This document shows, in pieces, positions 9,167 through 17,033 of a stretch of DNA of 20,000 bases. The stretch lies in IMG/VR virus record IMGVR_UViG_3300042465_006498, one strand, 5' to 3'. Positions within the stretch are counted from its first letter, which is position 1, and every line of letters begins with the position of its first letter. Below the pieces are notes generated by a model. It worked only from the letters and a program-made list of their open reading frames with translations. It had not been told where the DNA came from and did not search any database. Position numbers and translations under genes: made by a program. Origin of the DNA: an uncultured virus (IMG/VR IMGVR_UViG_3300042465_006498). Its lineage: Duplodnaviria; Heunggongvirae; Uroviricota; Caudoviricetes.

Positions 9167-10372
9167 ATGAAAAATATCAAACCGATAGATACCTGTAATT
9201 TTTGCGGCAAACACAAAGACACTGTGACCAAGCTTATAGTAGGCGATTCAGTTGCTATTTGCAACGAGTGTGTGGATCTGTGTCAAACTCTCTTGGTAGA
9301 TGACCCAGCAGAACTCAACAAACAAACCGCTACACTGGATCCATTGGCCATTAAAGATCATTTAGACCAGTATGTGATTGGCCAAGATCAAGCCAAACAA
9401 GTGTTGAGCGTGGCAGTGGTCAATCACTACAAACGGATCAACAATCAAGACCAAAATACTGAAATTGAAAAAGCCAACATTCTCATGCTTGGCCCCACAG
9501 GGTCAGGCAAAACACTCTTGGCTCGCACAGTGGCCCGTTATCTTGACGTGCCGTTTGTGATTGCTGATGCCACCAGCTTGACTGAAGCTGGTTATGTAGG
9601 CGACGATGTGGAAAGTCTAATCAGTCGCTTGTATGCTGCTGCAGACTACAACGTAGACCGTTGCCAACGCGGCATTGTGTTTGTGGATGAAATTGACAAG
9701 ATTGCTAGAAAAAGTGAAGGAACCAGTATCACACGTGATGTGTCGGGCGAAGGTGTACAACAAGCCCTGCTCAAACTGGTGGAAGGCACTCGATGCCGAA
9801 TTACTCCGCAAGGCGGGCGTAAACACCCGTCGGGGGAAACGGTAGAAATTGATACCACAAACATCTTGTTCATTGCAGGTGGTGCTTTTGTGGGCCTGGA
9901 AACTATTCTTAAAAATCGCATCAAAGGCAGCACCATTGGCTTTGGTTCTAAACTGGCCACACAAGATGATGTTAATCTCATGAACCAGACCATGCCAGAC
10001 GATCTGGTACGCTTTGGTCTTATTCCAGAGTTTGTGGGACGATTCCCCAGCTGGGTTGCACTGCAGGAACTGACCAAACAGGATCTGTTGCGTATTCTAC
10101 AAGACGTCAAGCACAACTACATCAGTCAGTACCATTGGTTGTTTGAGCGCGATGAAGTTGAACTCAATTTCTCCCCTGCTGCATTAGAATTGATTGCTGA
10201 ACGTACTATTGCTAACAAAACAGGTGCCAGAGGTCTGCATTCAGAACTTGAACGAGTATTGTTACCACACATGTTTTACCTAGCAGCATATCGTCGCCAA
10301 GGCATCAAGTGCGTGGACATTGACGTAGATCTAGTAAACTCACCAGTAGAATTGAAACAAGTCAACGAGTAA
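9167..10372 (+). CDS. clpX: ATP-dependent Clp protease ATP-binding subunit ClpX
   Basis: C4 zinc domain (CNFC...CNEC), Walker A GPTGSGKT, pore-1 GYVG, Walker B FVDEIDK, pore-2 RDVSGEG, RKH loop, IGF ClpP-docking loop, and sensor-2 GARGL. Confidence 0.97.
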   Translation: MKNIKPIDTCNFCGKHKDTVTKLIVGDSVAICNECVDLCQTLLVDDPAELNKQTATLDPLAIKDHLDQYVIGQDQAKQVLSVAVVNHYKRINNQDQNTEIEKANILMLGPTGSGKTLLARTVARYLDVPFVIADATSLTEAGYVGDDVESLISRLYAAADYNVDRCQRGIVFVDEIDKIARKSEGTSITRDVSGEGVQQALLKLVEGTRCRITPQGGRKHPSGETVEIDTTNILFIAGGAFVGLETILKNRIKGSTIGFGSKLATQDDVNLMNQTMPDDLVRFGLIPEFVGRFPSWVALQELTKQDLLRILQDVKHNYISQYHWLFERDEVELNFSPAALELIAERTIANKTGARGLHSELERVLLPHMFYLAAYRRQGIKCVDIDVDLVNSPVELKQVNE

Positions 10373-10644
10373 TGTATATTGAATTTACTCTGCCACAGGG
10401 GCCTAGTGGGATAACCGCACTACAGCCAGGAATACATGCTTTGAACATAGTTTCCAAAAAACTCTCCGCCTGGGCACAACAGTACAACGTTGAGTACAAG
10501 ACAAAAACAATCAAATATAAAATACGAGTAACTTTTGATTTGGACGAGTATTACACATTGTTTGGACTGACCTGGACTGTGGACCCAAAATATCCAAGCT
10601 GGACAGATTACCGCGTGATATCTAATCTAAATAACAAAACATAA
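10372..10644 (+). CDS. Hypothetical protein
   Basis: 90 aa, TAATG overlap with clpX. Confidence 0.75.
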   Translation: MYIEFTLPQGPSGITALQPGIHALNIVSKKLSAWAQQYNVEYKTKTIKYKIRVTFDLDEYYTLFGLTWTVDPKYPSWTDYRVISNLNNKT

Positions 10645-10654
10645 TTGATTTTTG

Positions 10655-10668
10655 TGTTATACTAAATA
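10655..10668 (+). promoter_or_regulatory. Overlapping extended -10 promoter and late-promoter motif for the sHsp gene
   Basis: TGtTATACT (10655-10663) overlaps CTAAATA (10662-10668). Confidence 0.5.
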
Positions 10669-10672
10669 ACAA

Positions 10673-10735
10673 TGTAGTGCCCATAGTGGGGCTACACTTC
10701 AAAGTCATCTTGCTTAATAAAGGAGAAAACAAATG
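10673..10735 (+). promoter_or_regulatory. ROSE-like RNA thermometer in the sHsp 5' UTR
   Basis: 5' hairpin at 10673-10696. TCTTGCTT (10708-10715) pairs with the SD region AAGGAGA (10720-10726) with a bulged G and contains the ROSE U(U/C)GCU signature. Confidence 0.65.
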
Positions 10736-11194
10736 ACAAAAACTCTCACCCTTCGTAGTTTCGACATCCCCGCAATTCACAAATTTGGTATTGGTTTCGA
10801 TAACATGTTTGATGATCTAATGCGTGTGACAGCTCAACAATCCAGCACAAACTATCCACCTTACGATATTGTACAAATCAGCGAAGATGAGTACATGATC
10901 AATCTAGCAGTGGCAGGTTTTGGGCACGACAATCTTTCAGTGACCAAGGACAAAAAGTTTTTGATAGTTGAAGGTACACACAGTGTAGCAAAGTTGGCAG
11001 ATGAAGATGATGCCAACTACACATATCTACACAAAGGCATCAGCGAAAGACATTTCCGCAGAGAATTTCAACTTGCAGATCATGTGGAAATCAGCAATGC
11101 ACACCTTGAACTTGGTATCTTGAGCATACGTTTAAAACGTGAAGTTCCTGAAAGCGCCAAGCCAAAAACTATTGCTATTACGCACGTTTCTTAA
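10733..11194 (+). CDS. Small heat-shock protein (Hsp20, IbpA-like)
   Basis: IGFD, NYPPYDI, LAVAGF, YLHKGISERHFRREFQLADHVEI, A.L..GIL.I.L and C-terminal IxI (TIAI). Confidence 0.96.
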   Translation: MTKTLTLRSFDIPAIHKFGIGFDNMFDDLMRVTAQQSSTNYPPYDIVQISEDEYMINLAVAGFGHDNLSVTKDKKFLIVEGTHSVAKLADEDDANYTYLHKGISERHFRREFQLADHVEISNAHLELGILSIRLKREVPESAKPKTIAITHVS

Positions 11195-11210
11195 TATAAT
11201 AGTGTAAATA
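11172..11210 (+). promoter_or_regulatory. Tandem sigma70 and late-type promoters upstream of clpS
   Basis: TTGCTA (11172-11177), 17-nt spacer, TATAAT (11195-11200), then GTAAATA (11204-11210). Confidence 0.5.
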
Positions 11211-11211
11211 C

Positions 11212-11237
11212 AGTGGCAGCAATTTCGCTGCCACTTT
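11212..11237 (+). terminator. Perfect 9-bp hairpin (terminator or 5' stabilising stem)
   Basis: AGTGGCAGC-aatttc-GCTGCCACT followed by only a short T-run. Confidence 0.5.
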
Positions 11238-11253
11238 ATCAAGGAAAGTAACA

Positions 11254-11562
11254 ATGCCTCAATCAGATATCCGCACACGCATCAAACCACTAGAAGCTGT
11301 AAAAGAACCCCCAATGTACCGCGTGGTTTATTTGAATGACAATCAAACTTCATCAGAGTTTGTGGTTGAAAGTTTGATGGAGCATTTTGATTATACTGCC
11401 GAAACAGCGGATCAAATCACAATTGACATTCACGAATCTGGCTCAGCTGTGGTAGCTGTGTTGCCCTACGAAATTGCCGAACAAAAAGGCGTAGAAGTGA
11501 CCATGCTGGCTCGAGCACAAAGTTATCCTTTGCAGATCAAACTAGAACCTGAATCAAATTAA
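11254..11562 (+). CDS. clpS: ATP-dependent Clp protease adaptor ClpS (variant pocket)
   Basis: PPMYRVVYLNDNQT..EFVV, IHESG.AVV, EIAEQK, AR...YPL. AAGGA RBS. Confidence 0.93.
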   Translation: MPQSDIRTRIKPLEAVKEPPMYRVVYLNDNQTSSEFVVESLMEHFDYTAETADQITIDIHESGSAVVAVLPYEIAEQKGVEVTMLARAQSYPLQIKLEPESN

Positions 11563-12374: not shown

Positions 12375-12728
12375 ATGAACATTATATTTGGAGACTCAAT
12401 CAATCAAATTCCCAACAGTTTTACTGTGCTGGAACTGGACACATTCCGTATGATCAACGAAGGTCGTAACGCCACCGCATATTGCGTGATTGAAAAAATT
12501 CCCTTGACTGATTTTGACAAGCTGACAGCCTACAAAAAAGTACATAGTGATCTCCTGGAGAACTATCGCAGACGCGAATGGACCTATTGTGAGCATGCTA
12601 TTGAAGGCCTTATGGGCAAGTGGAACAACGAACTAGATTCTTTTTATTCTGACCTGTTGTTACGAGTACAGACATATCGTCAAAATCCCCCTGGAGACGA
12701 ATGGGATGGCACTAGAGTCAAGATTTAA
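12375..12728 (+). CDS. Hypothetical protein resembling the C-terminal part of class III adenylate/guanylate cyclases
   Basis: AAAGGA RBS before the ATG at 12375. FTVLELDTFRM...AYCV and Y.RREW...D.FY...R...Y...PP..EWDG resemble the cyclase RELD.IRVKGK...IYE segment and PP..WDG tail. Confidence 0.55.
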   Translation: MNIIFGDSINQIPNSFTVLELDTFRMINEGRNATAYCVIEKIPLTDFDKLTAYKKVHSDLLENYRRREWTYCEHAIEGLMGKWNNELDSFYSDLLLRVQTYRQNPPGDEWDGTRVKI

Positions 12729-14007
12729 CGTTAGAATGTTTTAGTAATTCTTTTGTTCTTTCATATTGTGCCAGAGTCGCCCAGGATGGCCTCCATTGAG
12801 GATGGTATTTAGATTCTAAATATTGAAATTTAATTCCGGTTGTGTAATTGTTCATTTCTGTAATTCCTTGATTTAAATTTTGTTGATATTCAAGAATAAC
12901 CTGTTGTTGAAATTCTTTACTAAAGAATCTTTTGTGATTGTGTTCGCATACTTCTTGCATTTTTTTATACATGATTTCTTTTTGTGCGCCTGGCATAGTT
13001 GCAATTGATTTCATTAGATCAACAATTGCAACAAGCCTTTGTGCTGGATCCTGAATATTGTCATAATCTTCGTCGATAATATTCTCAAATGTCTGAAAGC
13101 CGTAACTTTGCAAATATGCTAGACTTCCTGGTGTAGATACCAAAATAAACGGCTGTCCACAAGCTATTGGTCTCAATATTTTTTCAGTAAGATGCCATCT
13201 AGTGTCGTCAAACAATGTTTCTAAAACAATTTCTATGCCGCATGTTTGATAATCCTCACCTGCATAATCAGCGCTGGCTGAGCTTGGTGTTAAGTTGTTT
13301 TCAAAGAAATCTTCAAGATCAAATCTTGAAATAGACAACGTGGGATTTTTGAATTGATGAGATTGATAATGGTAATTTTGATCTGTATCACTGAATGACA
13401 TCTTGCATTTTTCAGCCAGATCATAGTTAACGATTAACTCAGTAAACCTTAACCGATATTCCCTGACCCCAGACCAAGCTCTGTTATACACCAGGAAGTC
13501 TTTTGTTATTGATTTGTTTTTTAATAACGGGTCTATTTCTGCGTATCTGAACCAGTCTCTTGCAATAATAGCATGACTCCAGAGATACACCGGAACCAAC
13601 TCATTAGATTGATATTTTAAAACCTCGTTACTATTTTTTTCTGAGTGTAATATTAAGGTACGGTCATAAACAGATGGTGGTCCTATTGTACGTAACATGA
13701 ATTCTTTAGCTGTTTTTGAGCTGGTCTCCATGTAAATTTCAAACTCGGGGGAGTTTGTAGTAAATGGGCAAGAATTTTTTATAAAATTGATTATGTCAGA
13801 TTCTGAATAGTAATTGTAATCCAATGGTTCTTGATCGTGACATATCATGGCAGGAATGTTGGGCCACAAATCTGATTTGTCGTAACTTTTTAACATGGTT
13901 AGATTGTTGAGATTTCTTGAGCCATGAGGATTCCAACGATAAATTAATAAGTTATGATTACTGATGCTGTCTAAAAAATTGTATAATCTATCTAAAGGAA
14001 TTGACAT
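12718..14007 (-). CDS. Putative glycosyltransferase-like protein (GT10-like motif), AT-rich
   Basis: 429-aa ORF. IVLETLF...LTEKILRPIACGQPFI...YLQSYGFQTF..IIDEDYD resembles the E...(Y)xTEK...P motif of GT10/GT-B enzymes. Confidence 0.55.
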   Translation of the reverse strand: MSIPLDRLYNFLDSISNHNLLIYRWNPHGSRNLNNLTMLKSYDKSDLWPNIPAMICHDQEPLDYNYYSESDIINFIKNSCPFTTNSPEFEIYMETSSKTAKEFMLRTIGPPSVYDRTLILHSEKNSNEVLKYQSNELVPVYLWSHAIIARDWFRYAEIDPLLKNKSITKDFLVYNRAWSGVREYRLRFTELIVNYDLAEKCKMSFSDTDQNYHYQSHQFKNPTLSISRFDLEDFFENNLTPSSASADYAGEDYQTCGIEIVLETLFDDTRWHLTEKILRPIACGQPFILVSTPGSLAYLQSYGFQTFENIIDEDYDNIQDPAQRLVAIVDLMKSIATMPGAQKEIMYKKMQEVCEHNHKRFFSKEFQQQVILEYQQNLNQGITEMNNYTTGIKFQYLESKYHPQWRPSWATLAQYERTKELLKHSNVKS

Positions 14008-14010
14008 CGA

Positions 14011-15261
14011 ATGAAAAATGTTGGATTTATTGGTCTCGGCAAGTTAGGGCTTGAATGTGCCGAAGTGTTTGCTGAATATTATACTGTGTACGGATATGAT
14101 ATTTACCCAAGATCAAGTGACCTTGTTAAAGTTTGCGATGTGCAGCAAGTAATAGAATCATGTGAATGGATTTTTGTGGCAGTGCCTACTCCGCATGCTG
14201 ACGGTTATGACGGATCAGTTCCGTCAAGCCACATGTGTCCGCAAGATTTTGGTCACCACGCGGTAATTGATGCGCTGGAAAAAATCAATGCCTATGCTGA
14301 CTCTCCAAAAAAAGTTGTGCTGATCAGCACAGTGCTTCCTGGTACTACTAGAAAACACTTTGCAACACTATTAGATCCCAAACACACATTCTTATATAAC
14401 CCCTATCTTATTGCCATGGGATCGGTTAAGTGGGACATGGTCAACCCTGAGATGGTCATGATTGGTTCAGACACCGGAGCAGGCACAGAAATACAGGAAC
14501 TAGTGGAGTTATATCAGTCCATGATGAAAAATTCGCCACGCTATGTGACAGGCACCTGGGAAGAATGTGAAGCTATTAAGATCTTCTACAATACATTTAT
14601 TTCAGCCAAAGTGGGCATAGTAAACATGATTCAAGACTTTGCGGTCAAGATTGGTAACATCAATGTGGATGTGGTTACCGATGCACTGGCTGCCAGCACC
14701 ATGCGGATCATGGGACCTAAATACATGACCGCGGGCATGGGCGATGCAGGTGCTTGCCATCCGCGTGACAACATTGCTCTACGCTGGTTGGCCAAAGAAT
14801 ACAATATTGGCTATGACTTGTTTGACACCATCATGCGGGCTCGAGAACAGCAAGCTCGCAACCTTGCTCAGTTTTTGTTTGACACTGCACTACAGGATGG
14901 AAAGGCTTTTGGTCTTTTGCCCATAGTGATTCATGGCAAAGCCTACAAGCCCAACGTGCCTTACTGTATTGGCAGCTACAGCACCTTGGTTGGACACTAC
15001 TTGAAAGAGCTAGGAGTCCTGGTTAAATATGTTGACCCATTGGCAGATGACCGCACAGATTGTGTAACATCGTTTGATCAGCCAGCAGTGATTCTTATGG
15101 CACACAATCGCAACATCACATATGGCTACACAGGTGTACAAGCAACAGATCCAGACTACTTTGAATTTGTTCAAGGCAGCATCATTGTTGATCCGTTCCG
15201 ACAAGAAGCAAATCGAACAGGCATGACAGTAATACATTATGGCAACACACGCAGTCTCTAA
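14011..15261 (+). CDS. UDP-glucose/GDP-mannose dehydrogenase family protein (divergent)
   Basis: Rossmann GLGKLG, VAVPTP, STVLPGTT, EAIKIFYN, catalytic GACHPRD and GKAYKPN. Confidence 0.9.
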   Translation: MKNVGFIGLGKLGLECAEVFAEYYTVYGYDIYPRSSDLVKVCDVQQVIESCEWIFVAVPTPHADGYDGSVPSSHMCPQDFGHHAVIDALEKINAYADSPKKVVLISTVLPGTTRKHFATLLDPKHTFLYNPYLIAMGSVKWDMVNPEMVMIGSDTGAGTEIQELVELYQSMMKNSPRYVTGTWEECEAIKIFYNTFISAKVGIVNMIQDFAVKIGNINVDVVTDALAASTMRIMGPKYMTAGMGDAGACHPRDNIALRWLAKEYNIGYDLFDTIMRAREQQARNLAQFLFDTALQDGKAFGLLPIVIHGKAYKPNVPYCIGSYSTLVGHYLKELGVLVKYVDPLADDRTDCVTSFDQPAVILMAHNRNITYGYTGVQATDPDYFEFVQGSIIVDPFRQEANRTGMTVIHYGNTRSL

Positions 15262-15763
15262 ATATCATATTCCTGCATTTTGGGATGATGAATTCCTGGA
15301 CCTTGAATATATCAATGAAACATTCAACGACAATGAATCAATTGAACATTGGTTGGCACAAGGATTTTCAAGCAAGTTCACAGGCGACATGTGCGACATG
15401 CGTAGTGCACAACCCAGCTGGAACCAAACTATCATTGAAGTGTTCACCCAGCTGGGATGGCAAGATATTGGCACCAGTTACTACAGAATGATGCCAGGAA
15501 CAATTTTGCCCACACACCAAGATCTTTACAAAAAATACATTGACATATTTGATCTGCAAGGTCAGGAACACACCATTTGCCGAGCTGTGATATTTTTACA
15601 GGATTGGCAACCTGGACACTACTTGGAGGCCATGGACGAACCTGTGGTCAAGTGGCGTGCGGGTGATGTGATAGAATGGTGTTATGACACTCCACACATG
15701 GCAGCCAACATGGGTGCCACAGTCAGGTACACGTTACAAGTTACTGGACATGTGCCCAAATGA
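15239..15763 (+). CDS. 2OG-Fe(II) oxygenase (Asp/Asn beta-hydroxylase-like)
   Basis: PGTILPTHQD (HxD), distal H in TPHMAANMG, and RYTLQV (2OG-binding Arg). Confidence 0.8.
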   Translation: MATHAVSKYHIPAFWDDEFLDLEYINETFNDNESIEHWLAQGFSSKFTGDMCDMRSAQPSWNQTIIEVFTQLGWQDIGTSYYRMMPGTILPTHQDLYKKYIDIFDLQGQEHTICRAVIFLQDWQPGHYLEAMDEPVVKWRAGDVIEWCYDTPHMAANMGATVRYTLQVTGHVPK

Positions 15764-16683
15764 TCTCCAGCTACAACGAATACAGCACACTAAAACGCAT
15801 TGTGGTAGGTGACGCTGCCTATGCCAACTGGCCCACAAAGGATCCTGTGTTTAGATCCGAAGCTGAACGCACACTGTGGAAACATACACCATTACCCAGC
15901 GGACCAGTGCCCGAGCACATTATACAGGAAACCAATCAAGACCTACAAGGCTTGTGCAGCATTTTGACCATGCATGGTGTGGAAGTTGTGCGTCCCAGTA
16001 CATTTGACTTTCAAACCCATGATGGGCTGTACAACTATTGCCCACGTGATCGATTTATTGTGTATGGTTCTATCATAATTGATCCTGCCATGATGTATCC
16101 TTGCCGTGATCAAGAATACCAGTGTTATATAGACATACTTGAAGATGCTGATCAGATCATTCACATGCCTCGAGACTCAGGTATGGTGCTGGACGCTGCT
16201 AATGTGCTGAGAGTAGATCAGCACCGATGGTTATTTTTGGAATCTGCTAGCGGCAATCGAGCTGCTTACGAGTGGCTATGTGCACAATTGCCCGAGGTAG
16301 ATATTGAACTGTGTAACTTTTATTCTGGAGTACATATTGATTCAACAATAGTGGCACTGAATGCAGATCAATTTGTTGTTAATGGCAGCAGACTAGATCG
16401 GAATAGAAAAGATCTACCACGACATCTCAAGGGAAAAGAGATATTTTTTGTTGAAGAAGTAATAGCGCAAGGATTTTACGAATATCCGTATGCATCAAAA
16501 TGGATTGCACTCAACATGTTGAGCATTGATCCTAAAACCGTCATAGTTGATGCCAAACAGGAAGCCATGATACAGGCGCTAGAACAAGGTATGGGCATGA
16601 CGGTTATACCCCTGGAACTGCGTCACAGCAGGACTCTAGGCGGGGGATTCCACTGTGTAACGCTTGATTTGGTACGATGTTAA
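15760..16683 (+). CDS. Amidinotransferase (StrB1/glycine amidinotransferase family)
   Basis: SYNEY..L..IVVG, YCPRD, DAANVLR, SGN, HIDSTIV, and HSRTLGGGFHCVTLD. The Asp-His-Cys catalytic triad is intact. Confidence 0.93.
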   Translation: MISSYNEYSTLKRIVVGDAAYANWPTKDPVFRSEAERTLWKHTPLPSGPVPEHIIQETNQDLQGLCSILTMHGVEVVRPSTFDFQTHDGLYNYCPRDRFIVYGSIIIDPAMMYPCRDQEYQCYIDILEDADQIIHMPRDSGMVLDAANVLRVDQHRWLFLESASGNRAAYEWLCAQLPEVDIELCNFYSGVHIDSTIVALNADQFVVNGSRLDRNRKDLPRHLKGKEIFFVEEVIAQGFYEYPYASKWIALNMLSIDPKTVIVDAKQEAMIQALEQGMGMTVIPLELRHSRTLGGGFHCVTLDLVRC

Positions 16684-17004: not shown

Positions 17005-17033
17005 TTGACATTATTCCAGATGTGTTGTATAAT
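17005..17033 (+). promoter_or_regulatory. Perfect-consensus sigma70 promoter (leaderless uvsE transcript)
   Basis: TTGACA (17005-17010), 17-nt spacer, TATAAT (17028-17033). The ATG is at 17040. Confidence 0.88.

Follow-up and report, generated by a model that had tools for sequence, protein, structure and literature searches.

What would a bacteriophage do with an arginine-dependent amidinotransferase? The question is raised by four genes at 12718..16683 of a window (the whole 20,000-nucleotide stretch of DNA that was analysed) from the uncultured virus IMG/VR record IMGVR_UViG_3300042465_006498, which a first-pass annotation, made from the sequence alone, had read as a cluster that may build a guanidinylated sugar or other hypermodification. 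Amidinotransferases are familiar from creatine, toxin and aminoglycoside biosynthesis; to our knowledge, they are not known from viral glycobiology. The window corresponds to bases 4450-24449 of a 98.9 kb viral contig (G000), whose completeness is put at 29% by CheckV. Our analysis tentatively favors the interpretation that the four genes form a module, specific to phages, for tailoring a nucleotide sugar, with an arginine-dependent amidination among its steps, and that a diversifying GT-B glycosyltransferase transfers this sugar to a variable surface acceptor. The first-pass coordinates, overlaps and 3-bp gap agree exactly with the list of open reading frames (ORFs), and the cassette is laid out as follows.

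ORF1, 12718..14007, minus strand: 429 aa; orphan glycosyltransferase of predicted GT-B fold, the fast-diverging, AT-rich, swapped-allele component (assigned from fold).
Gap, 14008..14010, no strand: the 3 nt (CGA) that separate the divergent start codons of ORF1 and ORF2 (read from the sequence).
ORF2, 14011..15261, plus strand: 416 aa; predicted divergent nucleoside diphosphate (NDP)-sugar 6-dehydrogenase of the UDP-glucose/GDP-mannose dehydrogenase family, an optional member (assigned from Pfam and PHROG).
ORF3, 15239..15763, plus strand: 174 aa; predicted minimal 2-oxoglutarate (2OG)/Fe(II) dioxygenase with a P4H/PiuC-like double-stranded beta-helix, the obligate partner of ORF4 (assigned from fold and invariant residues).
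ORF4, 15760..16683, plus strand: 307 aa; predicted StrB1-type L-arginine amidinotransferase of a shortened, phage-specific subfamily (assigned from a Protein Data Bank (PDB) match).

A phmmer search of the PDB with ORF4 returns as its best match StrB1 (1bwd), the L-arginine:inosamine-phosphate amidinotransferase of Streptomyces griseus, with an E-value of 5.6e-47 and 163 bits over ORF4 residues 2-306. This likeness had been noted in the first-pass annotation from the motifs YCPRD, DAANVLR, HIDSTIV and HSRTLGGGFHC, all four of which are present in the translation. Weaker matches are found to AGAT (4.6e-26, 95 bits), HsvA (4.9e-19) and SxtG (3.5e-19). ORF4 and StrB1 align over the full length of ORF4 with the Asp, His and Cys positions alike, such that D145 of ORF4 pairs with D179 of StrB1 and C299 with C332. 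D145, H192, D194 and C299 are invariant among 34 phage sequences of the ORF4 family, and we take D145, H192 and C299 to be the catalytic Asp-His-Cys triad of the AGAT and StrB1 structures. Curated hidden Markov models (HMMs) are blind to this gene, with no Pfam match at E<=0.01 and nothing significant in NCBIfam. The alignment nevertheless points to ORF4 being a genuine StrB1-type member of the AGAT/StrB1 amidinotransferase family, which has the pentein fold.

The phage enzymes are shorter than StrB1 by about 40 residues, the alignment having a gap between residues 127 and 139 of ORF4 where StrB1 has residues 138-173, and their lengths (303-309 aa) lie below those of bacterial relatives (337-379 aa). 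They also form a separate group from StrB1-like bacterial enzymes. In a quick tree of bacterial genome homologues, which has long branches flagged and holds no named StrB1 sequence, a branch with 99% SH-aLRT support splits the cassette amidinotransferases from nine bacterial enzymes and from that of the Synechococcus phage S-SCSM2R. The grouping with bacterial StrB1-like enzymes, together with a shared architecture, that would mark ORF4 as a StrB1 orthologue was not found. Separately, in three relatives (L033, L044 and L048) the cassette is followed downstream by one or two further amidinotransferase paralogs (375-423 aa). These are very remote from ORF4, with a branch length >5 in the quick tree, and bring the number of amidinotransferases standing side by side to as many as three in some relatives.

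ORF3 has no Pfam or PHROG match, and its assignment comes from structure prediction. The AlphaFold2 model (pLDDT 94.3) is a double-stranded beta-helix for which Foldseek returns 121 PDB matches at E<=0.001, the top one being the P. putida prolyl-4-hydroxylase 4j25 (E 1.1e-5), and VIA-align places it closest to 3dkq (Z 14.9), PiuC (14.5), P4H (13.4), PHD2 (13.3) and SnoN (13.0). H93, D95, H153, R163 and T165 are invariant in 41 sequences; the HxD...H...R pattern presumably binds the metal and 2OG, an assignment made from the motif pattern and not from a residue-level superposition. Fold and invariant residues agree with the first-pass call of a 2OG-Fe(II) oxygenase, and we predict that ORF3 is a minimal 2OG/Fe(II) dioxygenase. 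Its relatives number 2079 metagenome proteins at E<=0.001, and the 120 listed are all without a Pfam domain and are named no more specifically than 'hypothetical protein'. One metagenome protein of 675 aa (P0125) joins an ORF3-like domain (56% identity over 83% of ORF3) to the tail-sheath domains PF04984 and PF17482; the fusion may be genuine or may have arisen in gene calling. The search for longer forms of ORF3 yielded this single member and no glycosyltransferase fusion, which is weak evidence either way.

The dehydrogenase call for ORF2 is borne out by Pfam, where the central domain (PF00984, 1e-14) and the NAD-binding domain (PF03721, 2.7e-12) both exceed their cut-offs, and by a match to phrog_9148 (2.3e-83). 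The C-terminal nucleotide-sugar binding domain PF03720 scores 16.9 bits against a cut-off of 30, and TIGR03026 matches at 3e-39 with 135 bits, under its cut-off of 189.8. The best solved relative is the UDP-glucose dehydrogenase (UGDH) 3vtf (8e-15), with 58 bits to solved UGDHs; the GACHPRD segment of ORF2 aligns with GSCFPKD of this enzyme, and N..K aligns with N..K. N194, K200, C249 and D253 are invariant in 41 homologues, and we presume that the Cys and the Asn/Lys/Asp set hold the catalytic roles known for the family. ORF2 is best described as a divergent enzyme of the UDP-glucose/GDP-mannose dehydrogenase family whose predicted catalytic residues are intact. It is also the only part of the window matched when known phages are searched by distant blastn, with 68-70% DNA similarity to the UGDH genes of the cyanomyovirus Bellamy and the pelagiphage HTVC008M; megablast of the whole window and tblastn of ORF1 against known phages give no match.

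ORF1 matches no Pfam or PHROG family, and it is the GT-B fold that upholds its earlier description as glycosyltransferase-like. The AlphaFold2 model (pLDDT 89.8) contains the two Rossmann-like domains of this fold, and VIA-align ranks T4 beta-glucosyltransferase (BGT; GT63, 1c3j) first with Z 12.1 (root-mean-square deviation 4.6, 280 residues aligned), followed by the alpha1,3-fucosyltransferase 5zoi (Z 10.7), POGLUT2 (10.6), POGLUT1 (10.3) and T4 alpha-glucosyltransferase (AGT, 9.9). A total of 29 chains reach at least Z 8, and GT-B enzymes fill nearly all of the top 27 rows. The best structural likenesses of ORF1 are thus the T4 enzyme and the GT10 alpha1,3-fucosyltransferases; unlike those enzymes, ORF1 has no detectable sequence membership, and its genomes show no hydroxymethyl-base supply that a BGT-like role would need. 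Residues D58-Q-E-P61, R182, R185, E263-T264, L273 and E275-K276 are invariant and H272 and T274 at least 90% conserved; E275-K276 with the conserved T274 resembles the TEK motif of GT10. The nearest named atlas clusters to ORF1 are also GT10 (0.80), which we treat as a lead only.

What sets ORF1 apart from the other three genes is its divergence. Its GC content is 0.34 (0.30 at third codon positions, GC3) compared with 0.44-0.45 (GC3 0.40-0.46) for ORF2-4, and low GC3 in ORF1 recurs across most lineages examined. Between the window and its closest relative (L005), the flanks and ORF2-4 share 86% DNA identity, and the ORF2-4 proteins 85-91%, whereas the body of ORF1 aligns at about 65% over only 809 alignable bases and its protein at 51%. 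A profile search finds 12,986 representatives of this very large and diverse family at E<=0.001 and 1,406 at E<=1e-30, with the closest 150 of the 12,986 listed. ORF1 thus behaves like an exchangeable specificity module on a conserved chemistry core, a pattern which suggests that its acceptor differs from one close relative to the next.

The cassette as a whole is conserved in other viruses. In a set of 70 viral loci anchored on ORF4 (49 distinct ORF4 sequences), an ORF3 relative is present and adjacent in all 70 and an ORF2 relative in 61, while in the nine that lack ORF2 the ORF1 homologue abuts ORF3. ORF1 relatives are found in 62, two of the eight misses being cut by a contig end. Since these loci were chosen via ORF4, the reverse test was anchored on ORF3. 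Here ORF4 lies downstream in 79 of 80 loci, within 30 nt in 72, and the sole locus without it ends 7 nt past ORF3, so that the pair is present in 79 of 79 assessable loci; ORF1 relatives occur in 76 of the 80 and ORF2 relatives in 63. The ORF1-family gene usually sits 2-3 nt from ORF2 or abuts ORF3. The first-pass annotation had staked its proposal on co-occurrence of the genes in relatives, and co-occur they do, ORF3 and ORF4 without an assessable exception and ORF1 nearly always. Because the arrangement recurs in these 70 and 80 viral loci down to about 50% protein identity, with dN/dS values of 0.07-0.21 for the cassette genes (pairs with computable dS), it is far beyond chance. All four genes are under purifying selection. 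ORF2 and ORF3 overlap by 23 nt and ORF3 and ORF4 by 4 nt, and the shared ATGA of the latter is the usual sign of translational coupling, so ORF4 is probably coupled to ORF3.

Bacterial relatives of ORF4 lack these partners. Twelve of 13 bacterial StrB1-like loci (L086-L098, 32-35% identity) have no tblastn match to ORF1-3 within 8 kb, the exception being a weak local ORF2 match in L098 (41%, E 8e-4), and the Pfam contexts of the nine scanned are unrelated. Among the relatives examined, a small 2OG oxygenase and an orphan GT-B partner are found only with the phage enzymes, and because the bacterial loci lack them, the pairing of oxygenase and amidinotransferase appears, as far as the data reach, to be a phage invention. 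The matches above 55% identity in cellular genomes are contigs of metagenome-assembled genomes (MAGs; L080-L084) that carry the phage cassette or as much of it as fits. Two contigs of one Haliscomenobacter MAG (L080 and L081) and L083 hold three or four cassette genes; ORF3 and ORF4 are found on L082 and L084, which are short. The bins are labelled Haliscomenobacter, Terrimicrobiaceae, Bacteroidetes and Legionella. These contigs are probably phage DNA binned with cells and give at most a weak hint of host.

In many relatives (loci L011-L066 and others) the cassette is longer. Within the ORF4-anchored set, a 243-aa protein follows ORF4 in 37 of 70 loci and a 421-aa ORF does so in 47, and longer cassettes often continue with UvdE and a second ORF1 paralog. 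The 243-aa protein (cluster 6) resembles class I S-adenosylmethionine methyltransferases by language-model features only (0.94), with nothing credible in the PDB (best E 0.043). The 421-aa ORF (cluster 4) looks coiled-coil or fibre-like when read by eye and might be an acceptor. These two clusters and a third of 185 aa (cluster 13) have no Pfam (representatives L029, L040 and L056) or PHROG match, and the 98.9 kb contig lacks all of them.

Comparison with known systems places the cassette in two contexts. In streptomycin biosynthesis, StrB1 transfers an amidino group to an aminocyclitol phosphate that a DegT/StsC-type aminotransferase has supplied, and the streptidine branch shares the logic proposed here: a dehydrogenase and an aminotransferase of this type prepare the amine, which is then amidinated from arginine. 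The cassette departs from the streptidine pathway in having a UGDH-type enzyme in place of an inositol dehydrogenase, and in that it contains neither an aminotransferase nor a kinase. The other context is viral glycosylation. The virions of chloroviruses, mimivirus and mycobacteriophages are glycosylated by virus-borne NDP-sugar tailoring enzymes and glycosyltransferases, and the UGDH/glycosyltransferase/carbamoyltransferase cluster of Bellamy likewise combines soluble NDP-sugar tailoring enzymes of a lytic virus with glycosyltransferases. None of these viral clusters is known to have an amidinotransferase with an obligate 2OG oxygenase partner. In this company the cassette would be a case of virus-encoded sugar tailoring, widespread across large aquatic phages.

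The only sequenced isolate in the phage collection that has the homologous adjacent pair is the Synechococcus phage S-SCSM2R (PQ898602), with ORF308 and ORF309 (31% and 34% identity), amid glycosyltransferases. It differs in that the pair is very divergent, its amidinotransferase falls in the bacterial clade on a long branch, and no UGDH or ORF1 homologue is present. The S-SCSM2R report (PMC12801897) gives these genes as a '2OG-Fe(II) oxygenase family protein' and an 'inosamine amidinotransferase', terms ORF309 an 'antibiotic synthesis gene' from annotation alone, without experiments, and also reports ORF266, a second amidinotransferase (labelled 'glycine amidinotransferase'), along with a prolyl dihydroxylase of the virion proteome. 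In the literature searched, which lay mostly outside subscription journals, this annotation is the only mention of a viral amidinotransferase gene, and there is no report of a guanidino sugar of a virus. The earlier statement that no phage pathway of this composition has been characterised agrees with that search.

How might the four soluble enzymes work together? ORF2 would oxidise an NDP-hexose at C6 to an NDP-uronic acid, an optional step, since the gene is missing from some relatives. The sugar would receive its amino group from a DegT-type aminotransferase encoded at another place in the genome. ORF4 would then take the amidino group from L-arginine through a covalent Cys-amidino intermediate and pass it to this amine, making a guanidinium and releasing ornithine. 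ORF3, presumably always translated together with ORF4, would hydroxylate or otherwise oxidise the same intermediate using Fe(II), 2-oxoglutarate and O2, and ORF1 would transfer the finished sugar to its acceptor. A guanidino-sugar product is plausible. Since rapid divergence and exchange among close relatives are seen in ORF1 alone, the likeliest acceptor is something variable, for example a protein of the virion surface or a glycan of the host envelope, and not DNA.

A number of observations weigh against this scheme. For no member of the cassette has a product, a donor or an acceptor been seen. ORF1 is a predicted GT-B glycosyltransferase by fold alone and stands outside the named glycosyltransferase families: none of the 41 family members matches any Pfam glycosyltransferase family at E<=1, and Foldseek returns nothing for the model at E<=0.001 (only matches at E>=3e-3). 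The synteny sets are the closest relatives kept (the 70 ORF4-anchored loci and the best 80 of at least 590 ORF3-bearing viral stretches) and contain many near-duplicates. ORF2 is absent from 9 of the 70 and 17 of the 80 loci, from which the dehydrogenase seems dispensable to the core chemistry. Protein prolyl hydroxylases and PiuC top the fold matches of ORF3, level with small-molecule enzymes (Z 13-15). AGAT, SxtG and HsvA also match ORF4, and we take their acceptors to be non-sugar compounds.

The source of the amine is a further difficulty. The first-pass annotation expected an aminotransferase and saw none in the window; a PF01041 search likewise gives no candidate, either there or elsewhere on the 98.9 kb contig, which is 29% complete. 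A full-length DegT-family aminotransferase does occur in all four complete relatives (G001-G004, E 7e-61 to 5e-85), as does a DegT-like ORF of about 200 aa. Both lie far from the cassette, the DegT gene by tens of kb or more, and so the link is only permissive; we regard these genes as permissive support for an amino-sugar acceptor. The full-length gene of G004 adjoins an NDP-sugar epimerase/dehydratase, near a carbamoyltransferase, and its short DegT-like ORF adjoins GTP cyclohydrolase I. In the distant cassette L085 the gene order is ORF2, ORF3, short DegT, GTP cyclohydrolase I and ORF4, and in S-SCSM2R a 195-aa 'AHBA_syn' DegT-like ORF lies three genes upstream of the ORF3/ORF4 pair, amid five glycosyltransferases and a radical SAM gene. 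As an observation in its own right, a half-size DegT-like ORF (about 195-200 aa) followed by GTP cyclohydrolase I (FolE) recurs in unrelated contexts at L085:6647-7980 and L114:8076-9436 (G004).

Two alternatives keep the enzymes and change the substrate. In one, which we judge unlikely, ORF3 and ORF4 are a small-molecule pair: a non-sugar amine such as glycine, lysine or a polyamine would be amidinated and the guanidino product or its precursor hydroxylated, rewiring arginine, nitrogen or guanidine metabolism of the infected cell, with ORF2 and ORF1 as neighbours that have a separate sugar function. That the ORF3-ORF4 pair alone is obligate, with ORF2 often absent, would fit this idea, as would the lack of an aminotransferase within the cassette and the non-sugar acceptors of AGAT, SxtG and HsvA. 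The 243-aa methyltransferase-like protein behind ORF4 in 37 of 70 loci echoes an AGAT-GAMT order, and virus-encoded GAMT is described as enriched in ocean viromes in one report (PMC11360552). The methyltransferase-like gene is, however, missing from the lineage of the window, and neither HMMs nor the PDB support its assignment. StrB1 is by far the best match to ORF4 (163 bits, versus 95 for AGAT), an ORF1-family gene stands beside the pair in 62 of 70 and 76 of 80 loci, and distant cassettes lie amid glycosyltransferases and DegT-like genes, all of which argues against this reading. The other alternative, protein modification, strikes us as improbable. Following the logic of collagen, Skp1 and mimivirus L230, the P4H-like ORF3 would hydroxylate a residue of a virion or host protein, ORF1 would glycosylate that hydroxyl with a uronic-acid donor supplied by ORF2, and ORF4 would guanidinylate the glycan or turn a lysine side chain into homoarginine. 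The top Foldseek match of ORF3 is indeed an EF-Tu prolyl-4-hydroxylase (4j25), with PHD2-type protein hydroxylases at Z 12-13, but the small-molecule- or sugar-acting oxygenases SnoN, AsqJ and PiuC score within 1-2 Z units. ORF1 matches the protein O-glucosyltransferases POGLUT2 (Z 10.6) and POGLUT1 (Z 10.3), and its rapid diversification would suit a protein acceptor. In 47 of 70 loci the cassette is followed by the ORF that looks fibre-like by eye, yet this ORF has no PHROG or Pfam match and is not on the contig; the joining of an ORF3 domain to tail-sheath domains in P0125 concerns a single member, possibly a gene-calling artefact. We also know of no protein-directed amidinotransferase.

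DNA was one of three targets offered by the first-pass annotation, alongside virion proteins and the host surface, and it is the one that fares worst. If ORF1 were a DNA glycosyltransferase like T4 BGT or AGT, a modified and possibly guanidino sugar could protect phage DNA from restriction, and an anti-restriction arms race could account for the diversification of ORF1. T4 BGT is its top structural match (Z 12.1) and T4 AGT also scores well (Z 9.9); the lead of BGT over unrelated GT-B enzymes is, however, only about 1.4 Z units. The genomes likewise argue against a modified base. A PF00303 thymidylate synthase is present in G001, G002 and G004 (349-361 bits) and adjoins DHFR in G004, the one context examined, and none is found in G003, which carries the cassette, or in the 29%-complete G000. 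It looks like an ordinary ThyA. Because the complete relatives carry this canonical enzyme or none, they give no hint of a hydroxymethyl-pyrimidine handle. Neither TGT/DpdA nor QueC is found in any of the five records (the four complete relatives and G000), and no base-modification gene is recognised on the contig. We therefore consider DNA hypermodification highly improbable. The probability that remains belongs to an explanation not yet thought of.

The signals around the cassette say little of how it is expressed. ORF1 and ORF2 are head-to-head with start codons 3 nt apart, and therefore any promoters must sit within the adjoining coding sequences. A perfect TATAAT is found at 13982-13987, 24 nt 5' of the ORF2 ATG. 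The promoter scan of the window found 15 candidates versus 15.8 expected from shuffles, terminators are likewise not enriched, and the T4-type late TATAAATA has no match in the window (0.49 expected). Further downstream, a perfect sigma-70 consensus (TTGACA, 17 nt, TATAAT; 12/12) at 17005-17033 on the plus strand precedes and overlaps the listed GTG start (17022) of a UvdE UV-endonuclease gene; the true start of this gene is probably further downstream than 17022, and it may be transcribed by the host RNA polymerase. No tRNA gene was found in the window, nor any Rfam match at E<=0.1. Upstream of the cassette, at 9167-11562, lies a proteostasis run (ClpX-like, a 90-aa ORF, Hsp20 and ClpS-like) whose order is conserved in the closest relatives.

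Because complete genomes of 329-357 kb are among its close relatives, the contig is a fragment of a jumbo aquatic phage. Pfam and PHROG scans of it identify ribonucleotide reductase, clamp loader, PhoH and PstS genes, ClpX-, ClpS-, Hsp20- and Lon-like genes, and tail-fibre and other virion genes. They also find a GT4 glycosyltransferase, a D-Ala-D-Ala carboxypeptidase, and five fatty-acid-desaturase-family paralogs with one PHROG-only relative. Desaturase-type ORFs lie at L075:3734-4540 (minus strand) and as four tandem genes at L077:13295-16290 (plus strand); PF00487 (phrog_35201) is matched by four of these five and by relatives outside the window, while the last tandem copy (L077:15514-16290) has a PHROG family match only. 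Together on one contig, the desaturases, the carboxypeptidase and GT4 look like a sizeable envelope-directed gene set. At least half of the sampled sequence words are contained in 21 of the 24 runs listed for the locus, all 21 labelled as lake-water metagenome; one of these is possibly the contig's own source, and the 24 include no RNA run.

We return to the sugar-tailoring module and what it would mean. The module recurs across large aquatic phages, this phage recurs in many lake metagenomes, and the swapped-allele ORF1 points to a role at the phage-host interface. In its most specific form, which is possible although on balance doubtful, a virus-only module would make a cationic guanidino sugar (possibly uronic and hydroxylated) from arginine, and the rapidly diversifying orphan glycosyltransferase would attach it to the surface of the virion or to the envelope of the infected cell. 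If true, this glycan would be the first of any virus to depend on an amidinotransferase, and phages would have a new route to altered surface charge, with possible uses in adsorption, superinfection exclusion or evasion of recognition by hosts or grazers. Discovery of the product would give three large viral dark-matter families a function in one step, and could yield a new cationic sugar and a new enzyme activity, nucleotide-sugar amidination, that could be useful for glyco-engineering.

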